DNA from: Bacteroidetes bacterium RIFCSPLOWO2_12_FULL_37_12
GTDB lineage: Bacteria > Bacteroidota > Bacteroidia > 2-12-FULL-37-12
Assembly (NCBI GenBank): GCA_001769655.1
Contig: MEPC01000024.1
Coordinates: forward strand, 77,572-141,571
DNA: 64,000 nucleotides
Reading direction: 5' to 3'
Part shown: positions 3,732-63,276 of the stretch, one piece after another
Layout of the letters: every line of letters starts with the position of its first letter
How positions within the stretch are numbered: position 1 is the stretch's first letter
Position numbers and translations under genes: made by a program
The notes under the pieces: model-generated
The model's database searches: none
Seen by the model: only the letters and a program-made list of their open reading frames with translations
Told to the model about the DNA's origin: nothing

Positions 3732-5768
3732 ATGAAAAAATCAAAATCATATTTGCTTTTAACTTTACTGTCGGTATCTCCGGTATTCGTTGGATTATAT
3801 AATCCTTGCTTCGCACTAGTTGCTGTAAATAACTTTAGGGCACTTCTAAAAATTCAACCAAATGTCTCCCTCTGGAGGGAGATAAAGAGGGAGGAAAATA
3901 AAAAGATTGAATTTTTAGAAGTGCCCGTAACCTCTTCAGATACCACTAAAAAAACCCCCAAATTCCACCTCATAAAAGGCAAGGAAACACTTGCCCAGAT
4001 TGCGGCGAAGTACAAAATCCCTCAAAGAGACCTGATGAAATGGAACAAGCTCACCACCGCAAAAGTTTCCCCCAACCAAAAAATTCTGTTATACAACCCC
4101 GATTCTACTGAGCAAACAGCGGATGAGCAGTTAGACAAAAATTTATCTGCACAATCTGCACAGTCAGACAAATCACCCCAAAAAACCGGTAACCCGAATG
4201 ACAGGTCCAATGTCTCATCAGAAGAATTACAGGCATTGCTGAATAAAATGAATTACCAGCCAACGGTAATAACCAAAAAGGGGACAGAAATAAAAGTAAT
4301 CCAGGAACAACCCATCCCCAGCCAGATAAAAGATAGCCGGCAAAGGGAAAAAGCAAAAGCCGATTCAGCTTTTAAGGCAAGAGAAATAGAAGAAAAAATT
4401 GAAAAATTAAAAGAAAGGGCAAGAACCGATTCCTTAGCAAGAATAAAAGCGGATCGTGATAAAAAGAAAAACGAAATGTTGCAACGAAAAAAAGAAAAAA
4501 TGAAAGCGGATTCATTGGCTAAAGCTGAAAAAGAAAAACAGAGAATTGCCATTTTGGAAAAAGCAAGAGCTGATTCGTTAGCCCGTGCCGAAGAGGAAAA
4601 AAGGATTAACGCGATAAAAGAAAAAGCCATTGCCGATTCTTTAGCACGCGTAAAAGCTGAAGAAGACAAGAAAAAAAGGATTCGTGAAAAAAGTAAAGCC
4701 GATTCGCTTGCAAAAGTCAATGCCATTCAGAAAAAGGATTCCCTTGAGCGGGTCAAAATGGAACAAGAAAAAATCCGGAAAGAAGCGGAAGCAAAATTAA
4801 CTGCTGGTAATCAGAATTCAAAGCCAAATAGTAAAACAACCTCTACCGGAAAGACAACAGAAAATCCAGTTTCTAAAGACGGACGTGGTAATATAAATGC
4901 GGAAGATGTTGCCGCATTGTTAAAAAAATTAAATGTAAATACTGCGCAAAAGGTTCAATATACACAACAAATCGGAATTCAAGTCAGCGGAGAGGATGAT
5001 TTGAACAACGACCAGATGGTGCGATTAGCATTTTTTTACGATAAGGATATGATACGCGCCGAAGAAAGGGAATTTCATTCGTATGTGGTGGGTACAAAAG
5101 AAACCCTGAAAATCGAAGAGAAAAAAGATACCGCAGTTTTTATTAAACGGGAAGAAAATCCTCAAGATGTTAAACCTGTACAAAATATGGAACCAAAACC
5201 TGTAGAAAGCAAAAAGCCAAATGATAACAATCCGGATGAAAAGAAAAAACCCGTTTCGGATAAATCTGAAGAAAAAAAACCCGATGAAAAGAAAAATCCT
5301 GTTTCCGATAAATCTGAAGAAAAAAAACCGGTTGTAAATCCTACACCTTCTTTAGAAAAACCAGCAGATACAAAAATTAAGGAAAATCCAAAATCCTCTC
5401 AGAAAGAATCATCAGAAACTGACACCACTTCAACAGAAAAACAAACGGATAAGAAATCCGGAATTGAAAAAACAGTTTATGGAGAAATTGAAGAAAAAGG
5501 AATCGCTTATGCATTACTTGGTAAAGAAATTGAGCAGGATGGATTAAAAATCATTCATGCCAGCGCACCCGTAGGCACTACCATTAAAATAACTAACCCG
5601 TTGGTTGATAAATCAGTTTTTGCAAAAGTTTGCAGTAATGAAATGGCAAAAATTCCTGAAAAAGATGTCATCGTTCAGCTCAATAAAAAAGTGTCTGAAA
5701 AACTGGGGTTAAAAAATAAGTTTGTTTTTGTTACATTAACCTATATGGGGAATAAACCTAAAGAATAG
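3732..5768 (+). CDS. LysM protein with long coiled-coil ADSLAR/K repeat region, K/E/P-rich repeats and C-terminal RlpA-like domain (paralogue of upstream gene)
   Basis: Signal peptide and one LysM motif (ETLAQIAAKYKIPQRDLMKWN). About 10 repeats of KADSLAR/AKxEEEKK occur with roughly 22-aa period. Repeats DEKKKPVSDKSEEKKP follow. The C-terminus (GIAYALLGKEIEQDGLKIIHASAPVGTTIKITNPLVDKSVFAKV) is similar to the C-terminus of 2794..3729. Confidence 0.65.
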   Translation: MKKSKSYLLLTLLSVSPVFVGLYNPCFALVAVNNFRALLKIQPNVSLWREIKREENKKIEFLEVPVTSSDTTKKTPKFHLIKGKETLAQIAAKYKIPQRDLMKWNKLTTAKVSPNQKILLYNPDSTEQTADEQLDKNLSAQSAQSDKSPQKTGNPNDRSNVSSEELQALLNKMNYQPTVITKKGTEIKVIQEQPIPSQIKDSRQREKAKADSAFKAREIEEKIEKLKERARTDSLARIKADRDKKKNEMLQRKKEKMKADSLAKAEKEKQRIAILEKARADSLARAEEEKRINAIKEKAIADSLARVKAEEDKKKRIREKSKADSLAKVNAIQKKDSLERVKMEQEKIRKEAEAKLTAGNQNSKPNSKTTSTGKTTENPVSKDGRGNINAEDVAALLKKLNVNTAQKVQYTQQIGIQVSGEDDLNNDQMVRLAFFYDKDMIRAEEREFHSYVVGTKETLKIEEKKDTAVFIKREENPQDVKPVQNMEPKPVESKKPNDNNPDEKKKPVSDKSEEKKPDEKKNPVSDKSEEKKPVVNPTPSLEKPADTKIKENPKSSQKESSETDTTSTEKQTDKKSGIEKTVYGEIEEKGIAYALLGKEIEQDGLKIIHASAPVGTTIKITNPLVDKSVFAKVCSNEMAKIPEKDVIVQLNKKVSEKLGLKNKFVFVTLTYMGNKPKE

Positions 5769-5780
5769 CAGGAAAAAAAG

Positions 5781-7169
5781 ATGCCAGACATTTTTGACCC
5801 GGTTCTGATTTTCGATAAATTTCTTTTTTCAAAGACGTTCTGGGTTAATGCAGTCCTAATTTTTTGCATCTCACTATGGATAAAAAAAAAATGGTTACGT
5901 TCCCATCCTCTTTCCTCCTATTTTTATCCTTTTCTTGCGCTTAAACTTATTTGTAGTTTGATAATTACCTACCTGCAATTCAAACCAGGAGTAGAAATTT
6001 TTAATATAGGTGACTCAGCGCCTTTTTTCAGCATTGGACAACTCTATTATTTTACATTTTTGGAGTCACCTATTAAATACTTTACACAATTATGGAACGC
6101 TTATCCTACTCACCCTTATATATTGAATTTTGGTGAAAATTTTTATGGTTGGATGCTTGTACAACCAAAAGTTTTATTTTTTACTAAAGTATTAAGTTTA
6201 TTCAGCATACTCACTTTTGGCAATGTAATGGCTACCGCATTATATTTTTCTTTTGTAAGCTTTTTAGGTATCTGGAAATTAGTCAGCGCACTAATCAGGA
6301 GTTTTCCCCGTTCTCAATATCTCTTAATCATCGCACTATTTTTATCACCCGGATTATTGATTTTTTCATCCATTATTTTAAAGGAGGCGTTGGTATGTGC
6401 CGGTTTTTTCTTTATAATAGGCATTGCTATTAATTTTGTATTTAATAACCGTAAACCAAAAAAGATCGAATGGTTTTTTCTGGTAATTGCTTTTTTTGTT
6501 GTTTTCAGATTAAAACCCCTTTACCTTCTTCTGCTGATTCCATCCGTCCAGGCATATATGATTTTTTCAAACGGATTATTTTATAGCACAGAAACTATTG
6601 GAAAGGAATGGCTCAGAAAATTATCTTTATTTTTTGGAATGACCATAGCCACCCTATTAGTTGCATTCCTTTTTATTCATCCCGGAAATTTTTCATTATT
6701 GGAATACATTTATTCAGAATATTCTGTTGGATTAAATGATTCAGTTGGTACCCTGCATGTAGAATATAAAAATCTACTGCCCACCCATTTCAGTTTTATC
6801 AAACACATACCATTCTCATTCGGTGCCGTCCTATTCAAACCATTTATCTGGGAGTGTCACAATGCTACTCACTTTGTGGCGGGCATAGAAAATTTTTTGG
6901 TACTTCTGCTGAGCTGTTTTGCTATGAGTGGAATAATTTTTTATTTCTTTTCTGCAAAAATAAATTTTATTTCCTTATTACATCAAAAAGAAATGCATAT
7001 TTGTGTTTTGTTATTATTATTTATCACCACCGGGGCTGTTTTATTGGGATTCACAACTCCAAATTTCGGTACGTTGTACAGATACCGAATAATTTTTTAT
7101 CCTTTTTTTGTTTTTATCCTATTGAGAATAATCCATAAATTTATTACTCATTTTCATGCAACCGATTGA
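5781..7169 (+). CDS. polytopic integral membrane protein, unknown function
   Basis: 462 aa, very hydrophobic with more than 10 predicted TM segments. Overlaps the next membrane gene by 14 nt, so the two are probably co-translated. Confidence 0.5.
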   Translation: MPDIFDPVLIFDKFLFSKTFWVNAVLIFCISLWIKKKWLRSHPLSSYFYPFLALKLICSLIITYLQFKPGVEIFNIGDSAPFFSIGQLYYFTFLESPIKYFTQLWNAYPTHPYILNFGENFYGWMLVQPKVLFFTKVLSLFSILTFGNVMATALYFSFVSFLGIWKLVSALIRSFPRSQYLLIIALFLSPGLLIFSSIILKEALVCAGFFFIIGIAINFVFNNRKPKKIEWFFLVIAFFVVFRLKPLYLLLLIPSVQAYMIFSNGLFYSTETIGKEWLRKLSLFFGMTIATLLVAFLFIHPGNFSLLEYIYSEYSVGLNDSVGTLHVEYKNLLPTHFSFIKHIPFSFGAVLFKPFIWECHNATHFVAGIENFLVLLLSCFAMSGIIFYFFSAKINFISLLHQKEMHICVLLLLFITTGAVLLGFTTPNFGTLYRYRIIFYPFFVFILLRIIHKFITHFHATD

Positions 7170-37960: not shown

Positions 37961-38245
37961 GGTTATAAAGGTTAATATTTAATAAAGAAAGGCAAAGCTA
38001 TGTAAAAAAAACGAGATTAAAAAATTATTAATGAAATAATTTGAACTTCGTTTTGTGCCGTAGGCACGATTTAATTTTGTAATGATTGACTTTAGTCCGT
38101 CATTCAAATCTGTTCGTTTTATAACCAGATGTGCCCCTTCCTTCGTCAGGGTAAACTCCGGCACGATTTAATTTAGATTCTCAAATAGGTATCGCTCGTT
38201 ATATGGCACTTCAAACTTCTTCAATAACTCCAGATGCTCTTCTCT

Positions 38246-38505
38246 GAGCGTTTGTTTTTTTTATGTTTCGTTCCTACGGAACTCAACGGTCTTAAGTCAG
38301 GCGTTTCAACAACGGACTGAAGTCCGTTGTTACAATATGAACCGTTCCTACGGAACTTATTTTATAAGGCGTTTTTTCCTGCACAGGCAACCCTTCAATG
38401 GCTTGGAAGAGTCACCGAGTATCGTGCTGGTCAAATAAAATACAGTAATTATTGTTGATTTTTTTTTAATATCCAGGTGGGTGAAAACTTACTGGGATTT
38501 TTTAT
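38246..38505 (+). repeat. about 260-bp highly structured element, copy A (ends in intrinsic terminator)
   Basis: About 90% identical to 38909-39169. Contains nested perfect hairpins (gttcctacggaac twice; caacggactgaagtccgttg) and a terminal hairpin plus T-run. Confidence 0.8.
38471..38503 (+). terminator. Rho-independent terminator (atccaggtgggtgaaaacttactgggat + T7)
   Basis: Stem-loop followed by a T-run. A variant of the motif at 39137 and 41249. Confidence 0.6.
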
Positions 38506-38798
38506 AAGGGCAAATGAAAGGGTTTGGTATTGCAACATTTTAAATCCATGGATTTCAATTTAAAAATATAATTTGCCATTTCCCTCCCAAAACCGTCTAA
38601 ATAGCGTGTATTGATTAAAACATTTTTAACATTTTTATCTCCGTAACAAACCAACAATTCTCCAATATCATCCAAAGTACCATAATCAAAAACTCTTGAA
38701 ATAATATACTCGGCGTTTTTTTCATAGTCCAAATCCCTGAAAGCAACATCCCAGAATGCTTTCTTTGATAACTCAGGTTTATATTTATATTTAAGCAT
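38502..38798 (-). CDS. hypothetical small protein (98 aa) located between the two copies of the structured element
   Basis: Only an ORF. No family recognised. Confidence 0.3.
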   Translation of the reverse strand: MLKYKYKPELSKKAFWDVAFRDLDYEKNAEYIISRVFDYGTLDDIGELLVCYGDKNVKNVLINTRYLDGFGREMANYIFKLKSMDLKCCNTKPFHLPL

Positions 38799-38908: not shown

Positions 38909-39169
38909 TGAGCGTTAGTTTTTTTTATGTTTCGTTCCTACGGAACTCAAGGTTCTGAAGTCAGGCGTTTCAACAACGGACTTCAGTCCGTTGTTACAAA
39001 ATGAACCGTTCCTACGGAACTGATTTTATAAGGCGTTTTTTCCTGCACAGGCAAACCTTCAATGGCTTGGTAGAGTCACCGAGTACCATACTGGTCAAAT
39101 AAAATACAGTAATTATTGTTGGTTCTTTTTCTATATCCCGGTGGGTGAAAACTTACCGGGATGTTTTTT
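38909..39169 (+). repeat. about 260-bp highly structured element, copy B (ends in intrinsic terminator)
   Basis: Direct repeat of 38246-38505. The terminal hairpin atcccggtgggtgaaaacttaccgggat + T7 has a perfect 9-bp stem. Confidence 0.8.
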
Positions 39170-39176: not shown

Positions 39177-39404
39177 TTATGCTACTTTTAATCGGACCAC
39201 TTCCAACTCAGCCCCGTTATTAACCGCTGCGGTTCCTAGTTTAAAAACTTTTTCGGTAATGTTTTCATCCAGATAATATGCGCCGCAAACAGGACAAACC
39301 ATAGCAGGTACTCCCTTGATTACTACTGTACTGTCATTTCTATTAAAAGATACGGTTACCTTTCCTTTGGTTGGGACACCGTGTTTACAATCAATACATT
39401 TCAT
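39177..39404 (-). CDS. YgiT-type zinc-ribbon protein (MqsA-N-like), putative antitoxin partner
   Basis: CIDC...CPVC four-Cys zinc ribbon (MKCIDCKHG...VKGVPAMVCPVCGAYYLDENITEKV). Overlaps the upstream DUF4258 gene by 4 nt. Confidence 0.65.
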   Translation of the reverse strand: MKCIDCKHGVPTKGKVTVSFNRNDSTVVIKGVPAMVCPVCGAYYLDENITEKVFKLGTAAVNNGAELEVVRLKVA

Positions 39405-39697
39405 ATTAGTGTTTTTTTCCTTGTTTTAAAATCAGATTTAAAGGTTGTTTTATCCGGAATATAAACCGTAATTATTATTTTTTTCTTTTCACCGATATCA
39501 TTTGCAACTACAACATGAATGGGTCTATGATTTACCATTTTAAACATTAAACAACTTGGGTAAGGATAATCATCTTTATAATCCTCTATTATTTCTCCAT
39601 GCTCTATCGTTTCAATTATTTCGTTTCTGTTAATGTTTCGTTCCAACATTCTAATAATTGCGTGGTCCTTAAAAACAATAATGCATTTCTCCTTCAT
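39401..39697 (-). CDS. DUF4258-like small protein, putative toxin partner of YgiT zinc-ribbon protein
   Basis: 98 aa in the usual DUF4258 to zinc-ribbon two-gene arrangement with ATGA overlap. No direct functional evidence. Confidence 0.5.
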   Translation of the reverse strand: MKEKCIIVFKDHAIIRMLERNINRNEIIETIEHGEIIEDYKDDYPYPSCLMFKMVNHRPIHVVVANDIGEKKKIIITVYIPDKTTFKSDFKTRKKTLI

Positions 39698-57838: not shown

Positions 57839-58123
57839 CTAATAATAATGTCCTTTCATTGAATGCACACGAATATTTCCATTATCTAAAGGTTCATACA
57901 CTAAGCGGTCAATGGCATTAATTCTACGGGACCAGCAACCTGAAAAATCGTACTTTAAACCTTCTGGTTTTCCAATACCGGTAAACGGAGTTTCTAAAAT
58001 ATTTTCCAATAATTTACGAATACGTTTCAGCACAGCTACATTGCCAGTTTTTTTCCAGTATATAAGGTCATCTTTTGCTTTATCAGAATATATTAATCTG
58101 TTTTCATTCAGCTTTTCTTCCAT
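57839..58123 (-). CDS. yoeB: type II toxin YoeB/Txe family mRNA interferase
   Basis: Collinear with YoeB along its length: LIYSDKAKDDLIYWKKTGNVAVLKRIRKLLENILETPFTGIGKPEGLKYDFSGCWSRRINAIDRLVYEP...HY. Confidence 0.85.
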   Translation of the reverse strand: MEEKLNENRLIYSDKAKDDLIYWKKTGNVAVLKRIRKLLENILETPFTGIGKPEGLKYDFSGCWSRRINAIDRLVYEPLDNGNIRVHSMKGHYY

Positions 58124-58320
58124 ATTTCATCAAGGGGTATAGTGGAAAATTTGCCGTCTTTAAATTGTTGCTGACTTTCTTTTAATTTCTTTACAAATTC
58201 AGATTTATATGGCTTTTCCGTAGAAATCGTGAATTTAATTTTAAAAGCTTTTATTACGGCTTTTATTGCTTCTATTTGCGAAATATCGCGTGGATAGGCA
58301 GTAAAATTAAATGCTTGCAT
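58108..58320 (-). CDS. putative antitoxin partner of YoeB (not YefM/Phd-like in sequence)
   Basis: 70-aa ORF overlapping the toxin start by 16 nt. Assignment is based on operon position only. Confidence 0.5.
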   Translation of the reverse strand: MQAFNFTAYPRDISQIEAIKAVIKAFKIKFTISTEKPYKSEFVKKLKESQQQFKDGKFSTIPLDEIWKKS

Positions 58321-59059: not shown

Positions 59060-60154
59060 ATGCTTTCATGGAGAAACAAATTAATTTTATTCATTAATTA
59101 TTGTGTCAGTTTTTGCCTGATAGTTGGATTATCAGCGCCTTACATTCCTCCTTCTCAATTTGTTTATTTAAGCTACCTGGCTCTCGGGATTCATTTTTTT
59201 CTTTTTACTTCTATCGTGTTAATGATTTACTGGATTTTCAATTGGTTAAAAAAAGGAATATTGATAAATATCATAACCTTACTGATTTGTTTTTCTCCTT
59301 TTTCCAATACCTTTTCATTAAGAAAAAACCTTCCAAAGCATCCCCATACAGCCATCAAAGTGCTCACATATAATGTTATGAATCTTGATTTATACCGTTG
59401 GTCAAGGGGAGAGATTGTGCGTGAGAAAATAATAAAACTCATTGACAGTTTATCGGCGGATATTATTTGCCTTCAGGAATTTTATCAGGGAGAAGAATCG
59501 GCTAATGACAATATTAAAATTATTTCCTCGTCAACAGAAAATAAATTTCATTATTTTCATCCCTTTGTCAGCAGACCTAAACGAGGAGGTTTTTTCGGGA
59601 ATGTCATTTTTTCACGTTTTCCCATACTAAAAACCGGAGCAATCCCATTTCCTGGAAAAACTTCCAATGGAGGAATTTATGCCGACATTTTGTTACCGAA
59701 ACACGATACGGTGCGGGTTTATTGCTTGCATCTTGAATCGTTTCACATTCCCCAGCAGGATTTCACAAATTTAGAGCATCCTGGTAATAATGAAAAGGAA
59801 AGTGTGAAATCAGCTAAAAAAATACGCCGGAAATTATCAACTGCTTTTATAAAAAGAGAAGCACAGGCAAAGGTTGTCAAGCAATCATTAAATAAATGTC
59901 ACTATCCGGTGATTGTAGCCGGTGATTTTAATGACACTCCTTATTCTTATGCCTATCATAAAATTCGCGGAAACCTCGAAGATGCTTTCACCACTTCAGG
60001 TAAATGGTGGAGTACAACTGTCTATAAGCCCATGCCTTTATGGAGAATTGATTATCTGCTTTATTCAAAATCCATTCATGTTTTCGGATACGAAACCATT
60101 CAGAAAAAATTATCTGACCACAAGCCAGTTTTTGCGTGGTTTGAGATGCGGTAG
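59060..60154 (+). CDS. membrane-anchored endonuclease/exonuclease/phosphatase (EEP) family protein
   Basis: 2 N-terminal TM, then an EEP fold (KVLTYNVMNL, ADIICLQEF, GDFNDTPYS, SDHKPV). Confidence 0.7.
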   Translation: MLSWRNKLILFINYCVSFCLIVGLSAPYIPPSQFVYLSYLALGIHFFLFTSIVLMIYWIFNWLKKGILINIITLLICFSPFSNTFSLRKNLPKHPHTAIKVLTYNVMNLDLYRWSRGEIVREKIIKLIDSLSADIICLQEFYQGEESANDNIKIISSSTENKFHYFHPFVSRPKRGGFFGNVIFSRFPILKTGAIPFPGKTSNGGIYADILLPKHDTVRVYCLHLESFHIPQQDFTNLEHPGNNEKESVKSAKKIRRKLSTAFIKREAQAKVVKQSLNKCHYPVIVAGDFNDTPYSYAYHKIRGNLEDAFTTSGKWWSTTVYKPMPLWRIDYLLYSKSIHVFGYETIQKKLSDHKPVFAWFEMR

Positions 60155-60196
60155 AGGCTGACATTAAACTTTTACTTTTAACTTTTTACTTTTTAC

Positions 60197-60551
60197 ATAT
60201 ATATTATCACTGTTGTCCAACTAAAAAAAGCGATGAATTAGATTAGCCCTGAAAGGGCTTAACCTCATAACACAGGGCACCGCCCTGTGTAGATTAAACT
60301 CGCACTCAGACTAACCCTGAAAGGGTTACACTTCTAATCTCAAACTTAATAAAGTACTAATGATAAAAGTTACGCCCTTTCAGGGCTCAGGGAACATTAC
60401 ACAAGGCGTTGCCCTGTGTTAGTATGTTTTGCCCTTTCAGGGCTTAACGAAAGCACTCTGATTATCAGTGGGGGACTTTTGTAAAATCATTATCTATCAG
60501 AGTGAGAATAGTTGTTTTTATATGTTTAGTCGGACAATAGTGATATATTAT
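60197..60551. mobile_element. MITE-like element: about 27-bp terminal inverted repeats flanking a palindrome-dense about 300-bp core
   Basis: Left TIR atatattatcactgttgtccaactaaa (60197-60225). Right TIR tttagtcggacaatagtgatatattat (60525-60551). 24 of 27 positions are complementary. The core has 4 copies of GCCCTGAAAGGGC-type hairpins and 2 copies of ACACAGGGC(A/G)(C/T)(C/T)GCCCTGTGT. No ORF. Confidence 0.5.
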
Positions 60552-60626
60552 TAAAGAGAAAAATGATGAATGTAAAATGATAAATGTAAAAGGTAAAATT
60601 TAATCTGCAACATTCGAGAAGTTACG

Positions 60627-61922
60627 TTACAACACCCAATACCCCGCTTTGCGAAATTTTCCGGAAAAAATTCCTTTAATATCCATGACAAATCCTTTTT
60701 TCTTAAGGATAGACAGAAAGTAATTTTCGGTTAATGAACGGTATTCATTATGAGATACAGCCACAATTACGGCATCATACTTACCTGAGATACGCCGTGT
60801 TAATGAAATTCCGTATTCTTCTTTAAATTCAGATGCGTTTGCATGAGGGTCGGTGACACTAACGATTAGTTTGTAATCATTTAAGGTTTTAATGATATCA
60901 ACCACTTTGGAATTACGTATGTCTTCAACATTTTCCTTGAAGGTAGCGCCCATGACAAGCACGCGGGATTTTTTTAAGGGTTTATTGTTTTCGATTAATT
61001 TAAGCACCGTTTGTTTCGCAATATAAAATCCCATGGAATCGTTGACATATCTTCCTGCAAGAATTACTTTTGAATGATACCCAACTTCAGATGCCTTATG
61101 AGTAAGGTAATACGGGTCAACTCCAATGCAATGTCCACCCACCAGCCCTGGATAAAATTTTAAAAAATTCCATTTAGTACCTGCGGCTTGCAGGACATCG
61201 TTGGTATTAATATTCAGCCGCTTAAAAATAAGCGAGAGTTCATTCATAAGAGCAATGTTAAGGTCACGCTGAGTATTTTCAATTACTTTTGCGGCTTCGG
61301 CAACTTTTATGGAAGGCGCTCTATGAACTCCAGCTGTTACAATTAGTTCATAAACGGATGCCACTTCATTTAGTGTAGTAGCGTTATTCGCCGAAACTAT
61401 TTTAATAACTCGTGAAAGTGTATGCTCTTTATCACCTGGGTTAATTCTTTCTGGAGAATATCCCACCTTGAAATCTTTTGTAAATTTTAATCCGGATTCC
61501 CTTTCAAGAACAGGAATACATTCTTCTTCCGTACAACCCGGATAGACCGTTGATTCATAAACTACTATGTCTCCCTTTTTAAGATTTTTTCCTACTATTT
61601 CAGAAGCGCCTTTCAATGCCCTCAAATCAGGATAATTGTGTTCATCAACAGGGGTGGGGACGGCAATAATAAAAAAAGATGCTTTTTTTAAAACGAAAGG
61701 GTCAGAAGAAAAATAAATATCACAATCCTCAAATTCTTTTTTATCAAGTTCTCCACTCGGGTCAACACTTTTCTGTAAATGTTTTATGCGTTTTTCATTT
61801 ATATCGAAACCTATTACCTTGATTTTTTTTGCAAAGGCAAGCGCAACAGGTAATCCTACATAGCCCAATCCGATTACGGCAAGGGAAGTGTTTTTTGAGA
61901 GTAATTGCTGGTATGTGGACAT
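60627..61922 (-). CDS. nucleotide-sugar (UDP-glucose/UDP-N-acetyl-hexosamine) dehydrogenase
   Basis: Rossmann N-terminus LAVIGLGYVGLPVALAFA and catalytic Cys region GGHCIGVDPYYL. Start taken at MSTYQQ because the longer ORF would overlap the flippase gene. Confidence 0.85.
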   Translation of the reverse strand: MSTYQQLLSKNTSLAVIGLGYVGLPVALAFAKKIKVIGFDINEKRIKHLQKSVDPSGELDKKEFEDCDIYFSSDPFVLKKASFFIIAVPTPVDEHNYPDLRALKGASEIVGKNLKKGDIVVYESTVYPGCTEEECIPVLERESGLKFTKDFKVGYSPERINPGDKEHTLSRVIKIVSANNATTLNEVASVYELIVTAGVHRAPSIKVAEAAKVIENTQRDLNIALMNELSLIFKRLNINTNDVLQAAGTKWNFLKFYPGLVGGHCIGVDPYYLTHKASEVGYHSKVILAGRYVNDSMGFYIAKQTVLKLIENNKPLKKSRVLVMGATFKENVEDIRNSKVVDIIKTLNDYKLIVSVTDPHANASEFKEEYGISLTRRISGKYDAVIVAVSHNEYRSLTENYFLSILKKKGFVMDIKGIFSGKFRKAGYWVL

Positions 61923-61956
61923 ATTTTGAAAAGGGACTCCAAATATATAAAATTTT

Positions 61957-63276
61957 TCAACTATTACCAGAACCAAGGAAGATATAATATCCGAATTTTT
62001 TACGCACAACCCATGTAGAAAGAACATTGGCGACTATTACACTAATCATGGTAGAGACGGCAGAGCCATTTATTCCATAATGTGGTACCAATAAAAAACT
62101 CAACACTATATTCAACAAAGCAGATACGATGTGAATATTTCTTACCGCATTATGATGGGATGTCATCATCAGAAGATTACCTACAGAGCCGGAATAAGCA
62201 TTGATGAATTGCCCGGTAGCTACGCAAACAAGTGGAAAATAAGCAGGAACAAATTCTTCGCCGAATAAAGATAATACATTTTTACCCCAACTAAGAATAA
62301 TGATATAAACAGGAAGTGAAATCCAAGCGGTGAAACGGGCTGTTTTTTGAACGGTTGTCCTAAGTTCTTCCATCTTTCCTGCATGATATAATTCAGAAAA
62401 AACAGGCGCGGCGATGGTATTCATTGCCGCCAACATAAAACTGGTATATCCTGCCACACGAAAAGAAATATTAAACAATCCCACCTCCTTTTCATTTCTA
62501 AAAAAACCAAGTATCAGCGAGTCCGAATACAGTAGGATGATTTGAGCAAGCGCAATAATATAAAAAGGAAGAGCATTCTTAAAGAGCAATAAGGAACTCT
62601 GATGGAAAATTTTTTCATTGGAGTTGGATTTTTCAAAAAACTTTTTGAGGAAAAACAAGCCCGCAATTCCTGAAATAAACAATGCGATGATATAACTGTA
62701 TAAAGGATTATTTTTTTCAAAAAACCAATAGGTCAGAATTGCCAATGATATCCATTGAATAGAAACAGGCAATATATTTTCCAATAGTGATGATTGATTT
62801 ATTTTTTTAAGTCCTCGCAGGGAATCCTTAAAATAATCAGTGCACGCAGAAATTAAAATCAGTATGGCGGCTAACCGGATAAATCCTAAACGCGAAATGT
62901 CCCCTTTAAAGAACGTATTATTAATTATATCGGATGTAAAAAAAATTAAAATTCCAAGCGCTAAACCTACCCATAAAATAATAAGAAAGCACTTTCTGAA
63001 AATAGTGGCGGCAGAAGCAAAAGAATAGTTAGTCAGATGTTCCGGTATCCATTTGACTAATGAAATATTAAATCCACATTTAACTAGTAAAGCTCCGACT
63101 TCTACTAACGCTATTAATAAAACAAGGGAACCAATACCCCCAGCTCCATAGTACTGCGCCATATAAATATTCAAGCCAAAAGCCATCAATACTCCTATAA
63201 TCCGGATACCAAGATTAGAAAAGGCATTTTTAAGAATCAGTCGGAAAAAAGATACCGGCTCTGCAAACTCATTCAT
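61957..63276 (-). CDS. polysaccharide biosynthesis / oligosaccharide flippase (Wzx, MOP superfamily)
   Basis: 12-TM protein with a Wzx-like N-terminus (NAFSNLGIRIIGVLMAFGLNIYMAQYYGAGGIG). Confidence 0.7.
   Translation of the reverse strand: MNEFAEPVSFFRLILKNAFSNLGIRIIGVLMAFGLNIYMAQYYGAGGIGSLVLLIALVEVGALLVKCGFNISLVKWIPEHLTNYSFASAATIFRKCFLIILWVGLALGILIFFTSDIINNTFFKGDISRLGFIRLAAILILISACTDYFKDSLRGLKKINQSSLLENILPVSIQWISLAILTYWFFEKNNPLYSYIIALFISGIAGLFFLKKFFEKSNSNEKIFHQSSLLLFKNALPFYIIALAQIILLYSDSLILGFFRNEKEVGLFNISFRVAGYTSFMLAAMNTIAAPVFSELYHAGKMEELRTTVQKTARFTAWISLPVYIIILSWGKNVLSLFGEEFVPAYFPLVCVATGQFINAYSGSVGNLLMMTSHHNAVRNIHIVSALLNIVLSFLLVPHYGINGSAVSTMISVIVANVLSTWVVRKKFGYYIFLGSGNS

Follow-up and report, generated by a model that had tools for sequence, protein, structure and literature searches.

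We analyzed a window of 64,000 nucleotides (nt) from the genome of Bacteroidetes bacterium RIFCSPLOWO2_12_FULL_37_12 (GenBank assembly GCA_001769655.1, contig MEPC01000024.1, forward-strand positions 77,572 to 141,571), in which a hairpin-rich feature at window positions 60197-60551 had been predicted from the DNA letters to be either a miniature inverted-repeat transposable element (MITE) or a multi-hairpin non-coding RNA (ncRNA). Our analysis indicates, with a probability of about 80%, that two derivatives of mobile elements, both without genes and one nested in the other, make up this feature in the gap between two convergent genes. The outer shell (60199-60551) appears to be a MITE-like internal-deletion derivative of a Bacteroidota insertion sequence (IS) of the IS4 family. 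The inner core (60244-60445) is a gene-less derivative of a Y1-type doublet, a pair of inverted hairpin arms. This doublet belongs to a very widespread family in whose autonomous copies inward-pointing arms bracket an HUH Y1 transposase of 148-150 aa.

The inner core is a palindromic doublet of about 200 bp, composed of two inverted three-hairpin arms with 37 nt between them (Table 1). The hairpin motif GCCCTGAAAGGGC is found three times in exact form (60246 on the plus strand, 60374 and 60431 on the minus strand; 0.02 expected), and a compensated variant, ACCCTGAAAGGGT, makes up hairpin H1b of the left arm; these are the four hairpins of one type, present in both orientations, that the original prediction had described. 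Its two ACACAGGGC..GCCCTGTGT hairpins are also there, as H2 and H2′, in the form ACACAGGGC-NNN-GCCCTGTGT. Both arms were scored against R1, a covariance model trained on 38 arms from other organisms and phyla and on no sequence of the window. Each matched the model over its full length (1-88), the left arm at 60.9 bits (E = 1.2e-16) and the right arm at 63.6 bits (E = 1.8e-17), and both are thus members of a family defined from other genomes, where they rank in the middle by R1 score among 198 arms from 100 loci. Folded as single-stranded DNA, each arm formed exactly three hairpins (left, -20.1 kcal/mol, z = -5.6; right, -17 kcal/mol, z = -4.5). The doublet as a whole (60241-60448) formed a single long hairpin (-49 kcal/mol, z = -9.8), as do the inverted doublets of repetitive extragenic palindromes (REPs) known as REPINs.

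The spacer between the arms points to a lost Y1 gene. One of its segments, CTAATCTCAAACTTAAT, adjoins H1b at a place where relatives have CTAATCCCAAACATAAC, the reverse complement of a sequence coding for ..RYVWD-stop, and is identical at 14 of 17 positions to L258 and L335 at the equal position beside H1b (L numbers denote the loci and contigs used for comparison). No signal was detected at the protein level when the spacer was translated; the reading of CTAATCTCAAACTTAAT as a probable short vestige of the 3′ end of a Y1 gene therefore depends on nucleotide alignment. The metagenome contig L270 aligned to positions 60241-60445 of the window, across both arms and the spacer, with a mean column identity of 80% (alignment A3), and its spacer still codes for the last ~20 codons of Y1 (..EYDERYMWD-stop). 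Homology between L270 and the window ends at the outer hairpins, and in L270 the doublet lies between divergently transcribed genes.

The arms recur across several phyla. When one genome per species was scanned with AGCCCTGAAAGGGCNWAAC, at least 120 contigs with shared context were identified, several genomes being matched on two or three contigs; the matches listed came mainly from Planctomycetota, Verrucomicrobiota, Bacteroidota, and Acidobacteriota. All counts given here for the family refer to the matches listed and are lower bounds from pattern-selected samples. The arm is laid out as H1a followed by GAAAC, ~6 nt, H2 (family consensus CCCAGGGC-AAC-GCCCTGGG), ~22 nt, and H1b (AGCCCTGAAAGGGC) followed by GAAAC. 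An H2 hairpin was present 17-26 nt upstream in 129 of 140 sites, and 64 of the 140 had an inverted H1b partner, which was no more than 45 nt away in 47 of them and 460-610 nt away in a minority. A search of viral contigs with the 14-mer AGCCCTGAAAGGGC returned more than 120 single, apparently random matches and was uninformative. In L259, L273, and L294, short tandem repeats follow H2 in place of H1b, those of L259 being of the ACCAACGA type.

H1b pairs that are ~460-610 nt apart bracket an open reading frame (ORF) of 148-150 aa, which matched PF01797 (Y1_Tnp) at 77 bits and NF033573 at 56.6 bits (cutoff 55). Using a hidden Markov model (HMM) of this protein, we detected a Y1 homologue in 33 of 239 arm-bearing loci, 20 of them with a full-length protein. 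The typical layout is an arm on the plus strand, the gene, and an arm on the minus strand, with H1b 5-25 nt from the ends of the gene; most arm copies have no gene, and their arms abut. Because these 239 loci had been chosen by DNA pattern, the test was repeated with Y1 loci chosen by protein similarity alone, from Arcicella rigui, a Chitinophagaceae metagenome-assembled genome, Ferruginibacter, and one further lineage. In all four, arms were found on both sides of the gene. The relatives of the window doublet therefore show, in both samples, the inverted repeats around a Y1 gene that are typical of REP systems. The proteins carry the consensus DHVH, WQ, and YI.NQ.EHH, which is the signature of TnpA_Y1 subclass 1.2 (PMC6006769), and are named in databases either "IS200/IS605 family transposase" or "REP element-mobilizing transposase RayT." In the literature searched, we found no paper tying Y1 subclass 1.2 to these hairpins or to the Rfam motif Acido-Lenti-1 discussed below, and the link between that motif and subclass 1.2 appears to be new there.

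A second arm subfamily was observed elsewhere in the window, in a 259-nt direct repeat whose two copies (38245-38503 and 38909-39167) are 92% identical. Each copy contains one three-hairpin arm in which the architecture is kept and every stem is changed (GTTCCGTAGGAAC+GAAAC; AACAACGGAC..GTCCGTTGTT). Each copy is directly preceded, on the minus strand, by a small accessory gene or operon, which encodes a DUF6922 protein (38502-38798) in one case and an MqsA/YokU-like antitoxin (39177-39404) together with a DUF4258 protein (39401-39697) in the other. A decayed Y1 locus is present at 38040-38360, where a C-terminal Y1 remnant (38171-38260, minus strand; ..ELLKKFEVPYNERYLFENLN; HMM positions 122-147, E = 5e-4) lies between an arm of this second subfamily (38265-38357) and a degenerate inverted arm at ~38040-38110 (GTTTTGTGCCGTAGGCAC).

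Part of the arm has been catalogued as RNA. The unit of H2, linker, and H1 corresponds to the Rfam model Acido-Lenti-1 (RF01687), a motif that Weinberg et al. (2010; PMC2864571) found in Acidobacteria and Lentisphaerae, sometimes near group II introns, and rated "probably RNA"; its function is, according to a 2026 preprint, poorly known. Relatives of the window arms scored 37.7-48.6 bits against RF01687, at or above the gathering score of 37, and matches of this grade stand on both sides of the Y1 gene in L352 and L305. The units in the window scored 23.5 bits (60400-60444, plus strand) and 20.7 bits (60245-60289, minus strand). In L235, seven tandem Acido-Lenti-1 units at or above the gathering score lie in one orientation, ~170-215 nt apart (4759-6204), an array-like arrangement unlike the usual inverted doublets.

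These matches, and the filing of Acido-Lenti-1 as a small RNA (sRNA) by Rfam, lend some weight to the alternative in the original prediction, namely that the hairpin units are ncRNA genes or parts of them and that the locus is a multi-hairpin ncRNA. The stems do covary strongly, with double changes in all eight H2 pairs, 98.3% of cells paired, and none of 500 shuffles reaching this level, in an alignment that had itself been fitted to the covariance model. G:T wobbles also outnumbered A:C mismatches, by 51:12 overall and by 26:11 without loop-closing pairs (p = 0.02), which suggests that one strand acts in single-stranded form; this asymmetry is modest and possibly biased by the model's selection of hits. 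However, the strand so favored is opposite to the one modeled by Rfam, and covariation and wobble asymmetry are equally compatible with hairpins of single-stranded DNA. Moreover, the units are found in either orientation, arranged as symmetric doublets that bracket a transposase gene on both sides, their genomic contexts are unrelated (convergent genes here, divergent genes in L270), and no promoter or terminator frames a unit. We therefore consider an ncRNA locus improbable. For the family as a whole, we lean, with some reserve, toward the view that Acido-Lenti-1 is not primarily an RNA but a DNA hairpin module recognized by TnpA_Y1 of subclass 1.2, the two together forming a very widespread REPtron/REPIN-like system with three-hairpin arms and a GAAAC-type guide, in place of GTAG, in Acidobacteriota, Bacteroidota, and the Planctomycetota-Verrucomicrobiota-Chlamydiota (PVC) group. 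If so, the window core would be one gene-less doublet of that system.

The outer shell has a different origin. A 21-nt core, TATCACTGTTGTCCAACTAAA (60205-60225), recurs in inverted form at 60525-60545 with two mismatches (0.00 expected from shuffles). The inverted ends that the original prediction had seen are thus real, although the 27-mers that it compared are complementary without gaps at 22 of 27 positions and not at 24. The shared core, ATCACTnnTGTCCrACTAAA at 60206-60225 and 60525-60544, matches the terminal inverted repeats (TIRs) of Bacteroidota IS4-family elements. A scan of viral contigs with ATCACTNNTGTCCRACTAAA led to L364, in which two inverted copies 1.45 kb apart surround a 435-aa ORF encoding a DDE transposase of the IS4 family (NF033592 at 216 bits, cutoff 115; PF01609 and PF14294). 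The right TIR core of the window shares 20 identical nt with the right end of this IS, and ~17 nt of left subterminal sequence are common to the window and L364. Five insertions of a related IS in differing gene contexts (L368-L372) have the core at both ends, 1438 bp apart, with two to four substitutions. In other contigs, the same kind of ends bracket a full DDE transposase of 416-435 aa. The IS4 transposase family is very large, and its members are typically found on ~1.5-kb contigs.

From end to end the shell measures 347 bp, and there is no ORF of at least 40 aa within 60197-60551, as had been claimed. It accordingly has the size and the lack of an ORF that characterize MITEs, with TIRs matching those of an autonomous, transposase-encoding element (L364; L368-L372). 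Since these ends bracket a full DDE transposase elsewhere, we interpret the shell as a MITE-like deletion derivative in which both TIRs survive, together with ~20 nt of subterminal sequence on the left and probably ~55 nt on the right. In the right internal segment, GGGGGACTTTTGTAAAATC (60469-60487) resembles the sequence directly after the transposase stop codon in the IS copies. A potential CACTCTGAT..ATCAGAGTG hairpin in the same segment (60454-60508) was no more stable than shuffled sequences (z = -0.84).

The two layers belong to separate families. No arm was detected, even at E values up to 10, in eight IS4 copies that are intact or nearly so, and the end sequence of the shell was found in only one (L258) of ~239 arm-bearing loci among the matches listed. 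Given that IS4 copies lack arms and that arms normally lack these ends, the feature is best described as an IS4-derived shell nested around a Y1-type doublet. L258, a contig of 1184 nt, has an IS4 left end and the first 49 transposase codons, then a Y1 gene with an internal deletion that is flanked by arms, and shows a second, independent IS4/Y1 nesting. Further along, it carries the apparent start of an IS982-type transposase. A GTCGGACA motif in L258 was considered as the partner inverted repeat of a small palindromic element and was rejected, as it in fact belongs to the N-terminus of the IS4 transposase.

This nesting bears on the MITE reading of the original prediction, which was right about a non-autonomous element with transposon ends, here IS4-family ends, and which does not hold for a single element, as the hairpin core is of a separate, unrelated type. 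If the GC-rich hairpins were an integral part of one IS4-derived MITE, one would expect them to lie entirely inside the inverted ends, as they do, and the Y1-type arms of L258 likewise lie inside an IS4 left end. Yet, in addition to the eight full-length or near-full IS4 copies without an arm, there are ~238 other loci, among the matches listed, with arms and without these ends, L270 has the doublet without the ends and with homology stopping at the outer hairpins, and the distance from end to arm is ~20 nt in the window versus 244 nt in L258. A single MITE is therefore very improbable.

The element wholly occupies the spacer of ~470 bp between the two convergent genes, as can be read directly from the sequence. 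Domain matches agree with the location given in the original prediction, between a gene of the endonuclease/exonuclease/phosphatase (EEP) family, whose stop codon lies 45 nt ahead of the left inverted end, and a polysaccharide locus, whose operon ends with a dehydrogenase gene convergent with the EEP gene. Because the flanking genes converge, the element is situated at the 3′ ends of both. A main role as a bidirectional terminator or mRNA 3′-end stabilizer for the two genes, through exapted repeats or plain terminator hairpins, would fit this position and the six GC-rich hairpins in an AT-rich genome (36.7% GC). One hairpin with a T-rich tail is indeed terminator-like on the minus strand (60386-60374), and REPs are known to stabilize mRNA and terminate transcription (PMC6006769). 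The other five of the six hairpins lack T tracts, however, L270 has the same doublet between genes that are transcribed divergently, and a terminator leaves the cross-phylum sequence identity and the transposase association unexplained. As a secondary effect, it is compatible with a mobile-element origin and does not replace it; as the main role, we regard it as unlikely.

Similarly, two inverted repeats 300 bp apart next to an operon of the capsule type in a bacterium of the phylum Bacteroidota are reminiscent of an inverton, in which the ~300-bp segment beside the polysaccharide locus would be flipped by a site-specific recombinase. Here, however, the repeats are the ends of an IS4-family element, the segment adjoins the 3′ ends of the two genes instead of a promoter, and no standout promoter-like signal was detected inside it. 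Three further assemblies of the locus are 100% identical to the window and in the same orientation, so that four assemblies, all from the same population, show a single orientation. An inverton thus seems extremely unlikely. A CRISPR-like array and an integron attC site were also considered and dropped, as nothing supported them and both layers match mobile elements.

Palindromy extends beyond both mobile elements. Nested inverted repeats span the entire intergenic region, from 60167 to 60601, which has an RNA fold z score of -11.4. The outermost pair is an AT-rich inverted repeat, complementary at 25 of 32 positions (none of 2000 shuffles was as good), that lies outside the shell and the core; possible explanations are a palindromic target site, an old terminator, or longer IS ends that have degenerated. 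The flanks of the IS4 copies in L368-L372 likewise have weak inverted symmetry.

Several observations weigh against the nested composite or the family-level link, and we consider them together. Within the 64-kb window, self-BLAST of the element found no other copy of the shell or of the arm subfamily of the core, and there is neither an intact Y1 transposase gene nor an IS4 transposase homologue. No convincing target-site duplication surrounds the shell: the pentamer next to both core ends is ATATT in the window and AATTT in L368, while five other copies have nothing of the kind, and the flanks are AT-rich. The right internal segment shows weak homology to IS ends (z = 3.0 against L365). The window units fall under the RF01687 gathering score and are therefore not members of Acido-Lenti-1 by the criterion of Rfam; an Rfam search of the region and of the whole window at the gathering score returned only a tRNA. 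TnpA_Y1 subclass 1.2 was described as being without REPs and IS properties (Quentin et al., 2018; PMC6006769), so that either the present link is new or the association is not functional. Finally, the arms are inverted, unlike the ends of IS200/IS605 elements, and the mechanism of IS608 is consequently not directly transferable.

Family membership of both layers, their architecture, the association of each with its transposase, and the covariation of the stems are matters of observation, from which a mechanism can be outlined by analogy. In single-stranded DNA, the hairpins of the doublet would extrude, and the Y1 enzyme would bind them and cut beside the foot of a hairpin, as an analogy with the mechanisms of IS608 TnpA and Escherichia coli TnpA-REP (summarized in PMC6006769) suggests. 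The GAAAC/GTTWC flank may take the role of the GTAG head of REPs. The shell, for its part, would move only with a matching DDE (IS4) transposase supplied in trans. At present the element may serve the locus in other ways, for instance by providing 3′-end hairpins for the convergent transcripts.

Table 1. Coordinates of the two layers, the outer repeat, and the flanking genes (positions in the window)
Feature	Position	Strand	Details
Left flanking gene, EEP family	59060..60154	+	PF03372, E 2e-21
Outer AT-rich inverted repeat, left half (TTTTAC repeats)	60167..60198		32 nt, 78% complementary to 60570-60601
Left terminal inverted repeat, IS4-type shell	60199..60225	+	Conserved core ATCACTGTTGTCCAACTAAA, 60206-60225; same core ends IS4 copies L364, L368-L372
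Subterminal remnant of IS left end (AAAAGCGATGAATTAGAT)	60226..60243	+	Like AAAAGAGTGATTTAGAT, same position in L364; alignment A5
Left three-hairpin arm	60244..60331	+	H1a 60246-60258 (+TTAAC), H2 60270-60290, H1b 60314-60326 (+TACAC)
Spacer between arms	60332..60368	-	Position of Y1 gene in autonomous relatives; alignment A3 with L270
Right three-hairpin arm, inverted	60369..60445	-	H1b′ 60374-60386 (head GTTAC), H2′ 60399-60419, H1a′ 60431-60443
Right internal segment of shell	60446..60524		Weak resemblance to IS copies
Right terminal inverted repeat, IS4-type shell	60525..60551	-	Core TTTAGTCGGACAATAGTGAT, 60525-60544
Outer AT-rich inverted repeat, right half (GTAAAA repeats)	60570..60601		Partner of 60167-60198
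Right flanking gene, UDP-glucose/GDP-mannose dehydrogenase	60627..62027	-	PF03721/PF00984/PF03720

The neighborhood of the element is accessory territory. About 2 kb upstream of the element, the minus strand encodes a type II toxin-antitoxin pair, with a YoeB-like toxin (PF06769; 57839-58123) and a DUF2683 protein (58108-58320). Apart from the identical assemblies, the closest homologue of the adjacent EEP protein shares only 37% identity with it. On the other side, the longest ORF of the dehydrogenase (466 aa, 60627-62027) overlaps the upstream Wzx-like flippase ORF (61957-63276) by 71 nt; public gene calls start the dehydrogenase later (431 aa), and the overlap is thus probably an artefact of start-codon choice.

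At the level of the locus, our findings suggest that the gap between the two genes is filled with mobile-DNA debris, an ordinary kind of object and not a regulatory RNA or a switch, whose hairpins may still influence the 3′ ends of the two convergent transcripts. At the level of the family, they would give the orphan Rfam motif Acido-Lenti-1 a testable function and supply the missing cognate repeats of a Y1 subclass thought to have none. REP/RAYT-like biology (RAYT, REP-associated tyrosine transposase), hitherto studied almost only in Proteobacteria, would thereby extend to several other phyla. They also suggest that genome pipelines are mis-annotating these hairpins as sRNA genes.

Both layers can be compared with known systems. 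The shell resembles MITEs derived from IS4 elements (NF033592 transposase with an N-terminal DUF4372 domain) in its matching TIRs of 20-27 bp, the lack of a transposase ORF, a size of ~350 bp, and an AT-rich intergenic site. It differs in bearing a foreign nested element and in showing no clear target-site duplication. With Acido-Lenti-1, described by Rfam as a 46-nt sRNA of unknown function from two phyla, the core has in common the two-hairpin unit of H2, a 12-nt linker, and H1. In the window family, by contrast, this unit is embedded in an 88-nt arm, is arranged in inverted doublets, stands on either side of a transposase gene, extends across many phyla, and has its wobble bias on the opposite strand.

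The core is also similar to IS200/IS605 elements such as IS608 and ISDra2, with which its relatives share a small HUH Y1 transposase (PF01797; just over the NF033573 cutoff), hairpins in subterminal position instead of duplex ends bound by protein, and presumably a single-strand mechanism. IS200/IS605 ends, however, carry same-strand hairpins and no inverted repeats, whereas here the ends are inverted copies of one three-hairpin arm, on the plus strand at left and on the minus strand at right in the relatives. In addition, the Y1 gene of this family is usually single-copy, and the window element has no gene at all.

The REP, BIME (bacterial interspersed mosaic element), and REPIN-RAYT systems of E. 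coli and Pseudomonas (PMC3333891; PMC3116915; PMC6006769) resemble the core in having short GC-rich extragenic palindromes, inverted doublets that form one long hairpin, and a majority of gene-less copies. As in a REPtron, a low-copy HUH Y1 gene lies between inverted repeats, and there are several repeat subfamilies per genome. The two kinds of system differ in four respects. Arms of the window family have three hairpins of two types, whereas a REP has one. The conserved flank is GAAAC/GTTWC instead of the 5′ GT[AG]G head of REPs; the heads in the window are GTTAC, GTTTT, GTTAA, and GTGTA, and the family consensus is GTTTC/GAAAC. The enzyme is of class 1 (subclass 1.2, Y---Q--HH), while RAYTs are of class 2 (Y---NP). 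Lastly, REPs are distributed in Proteobacteria, whereas the present family is distributed in the PVC group, Bacteroidota, and Acidobacteriota.

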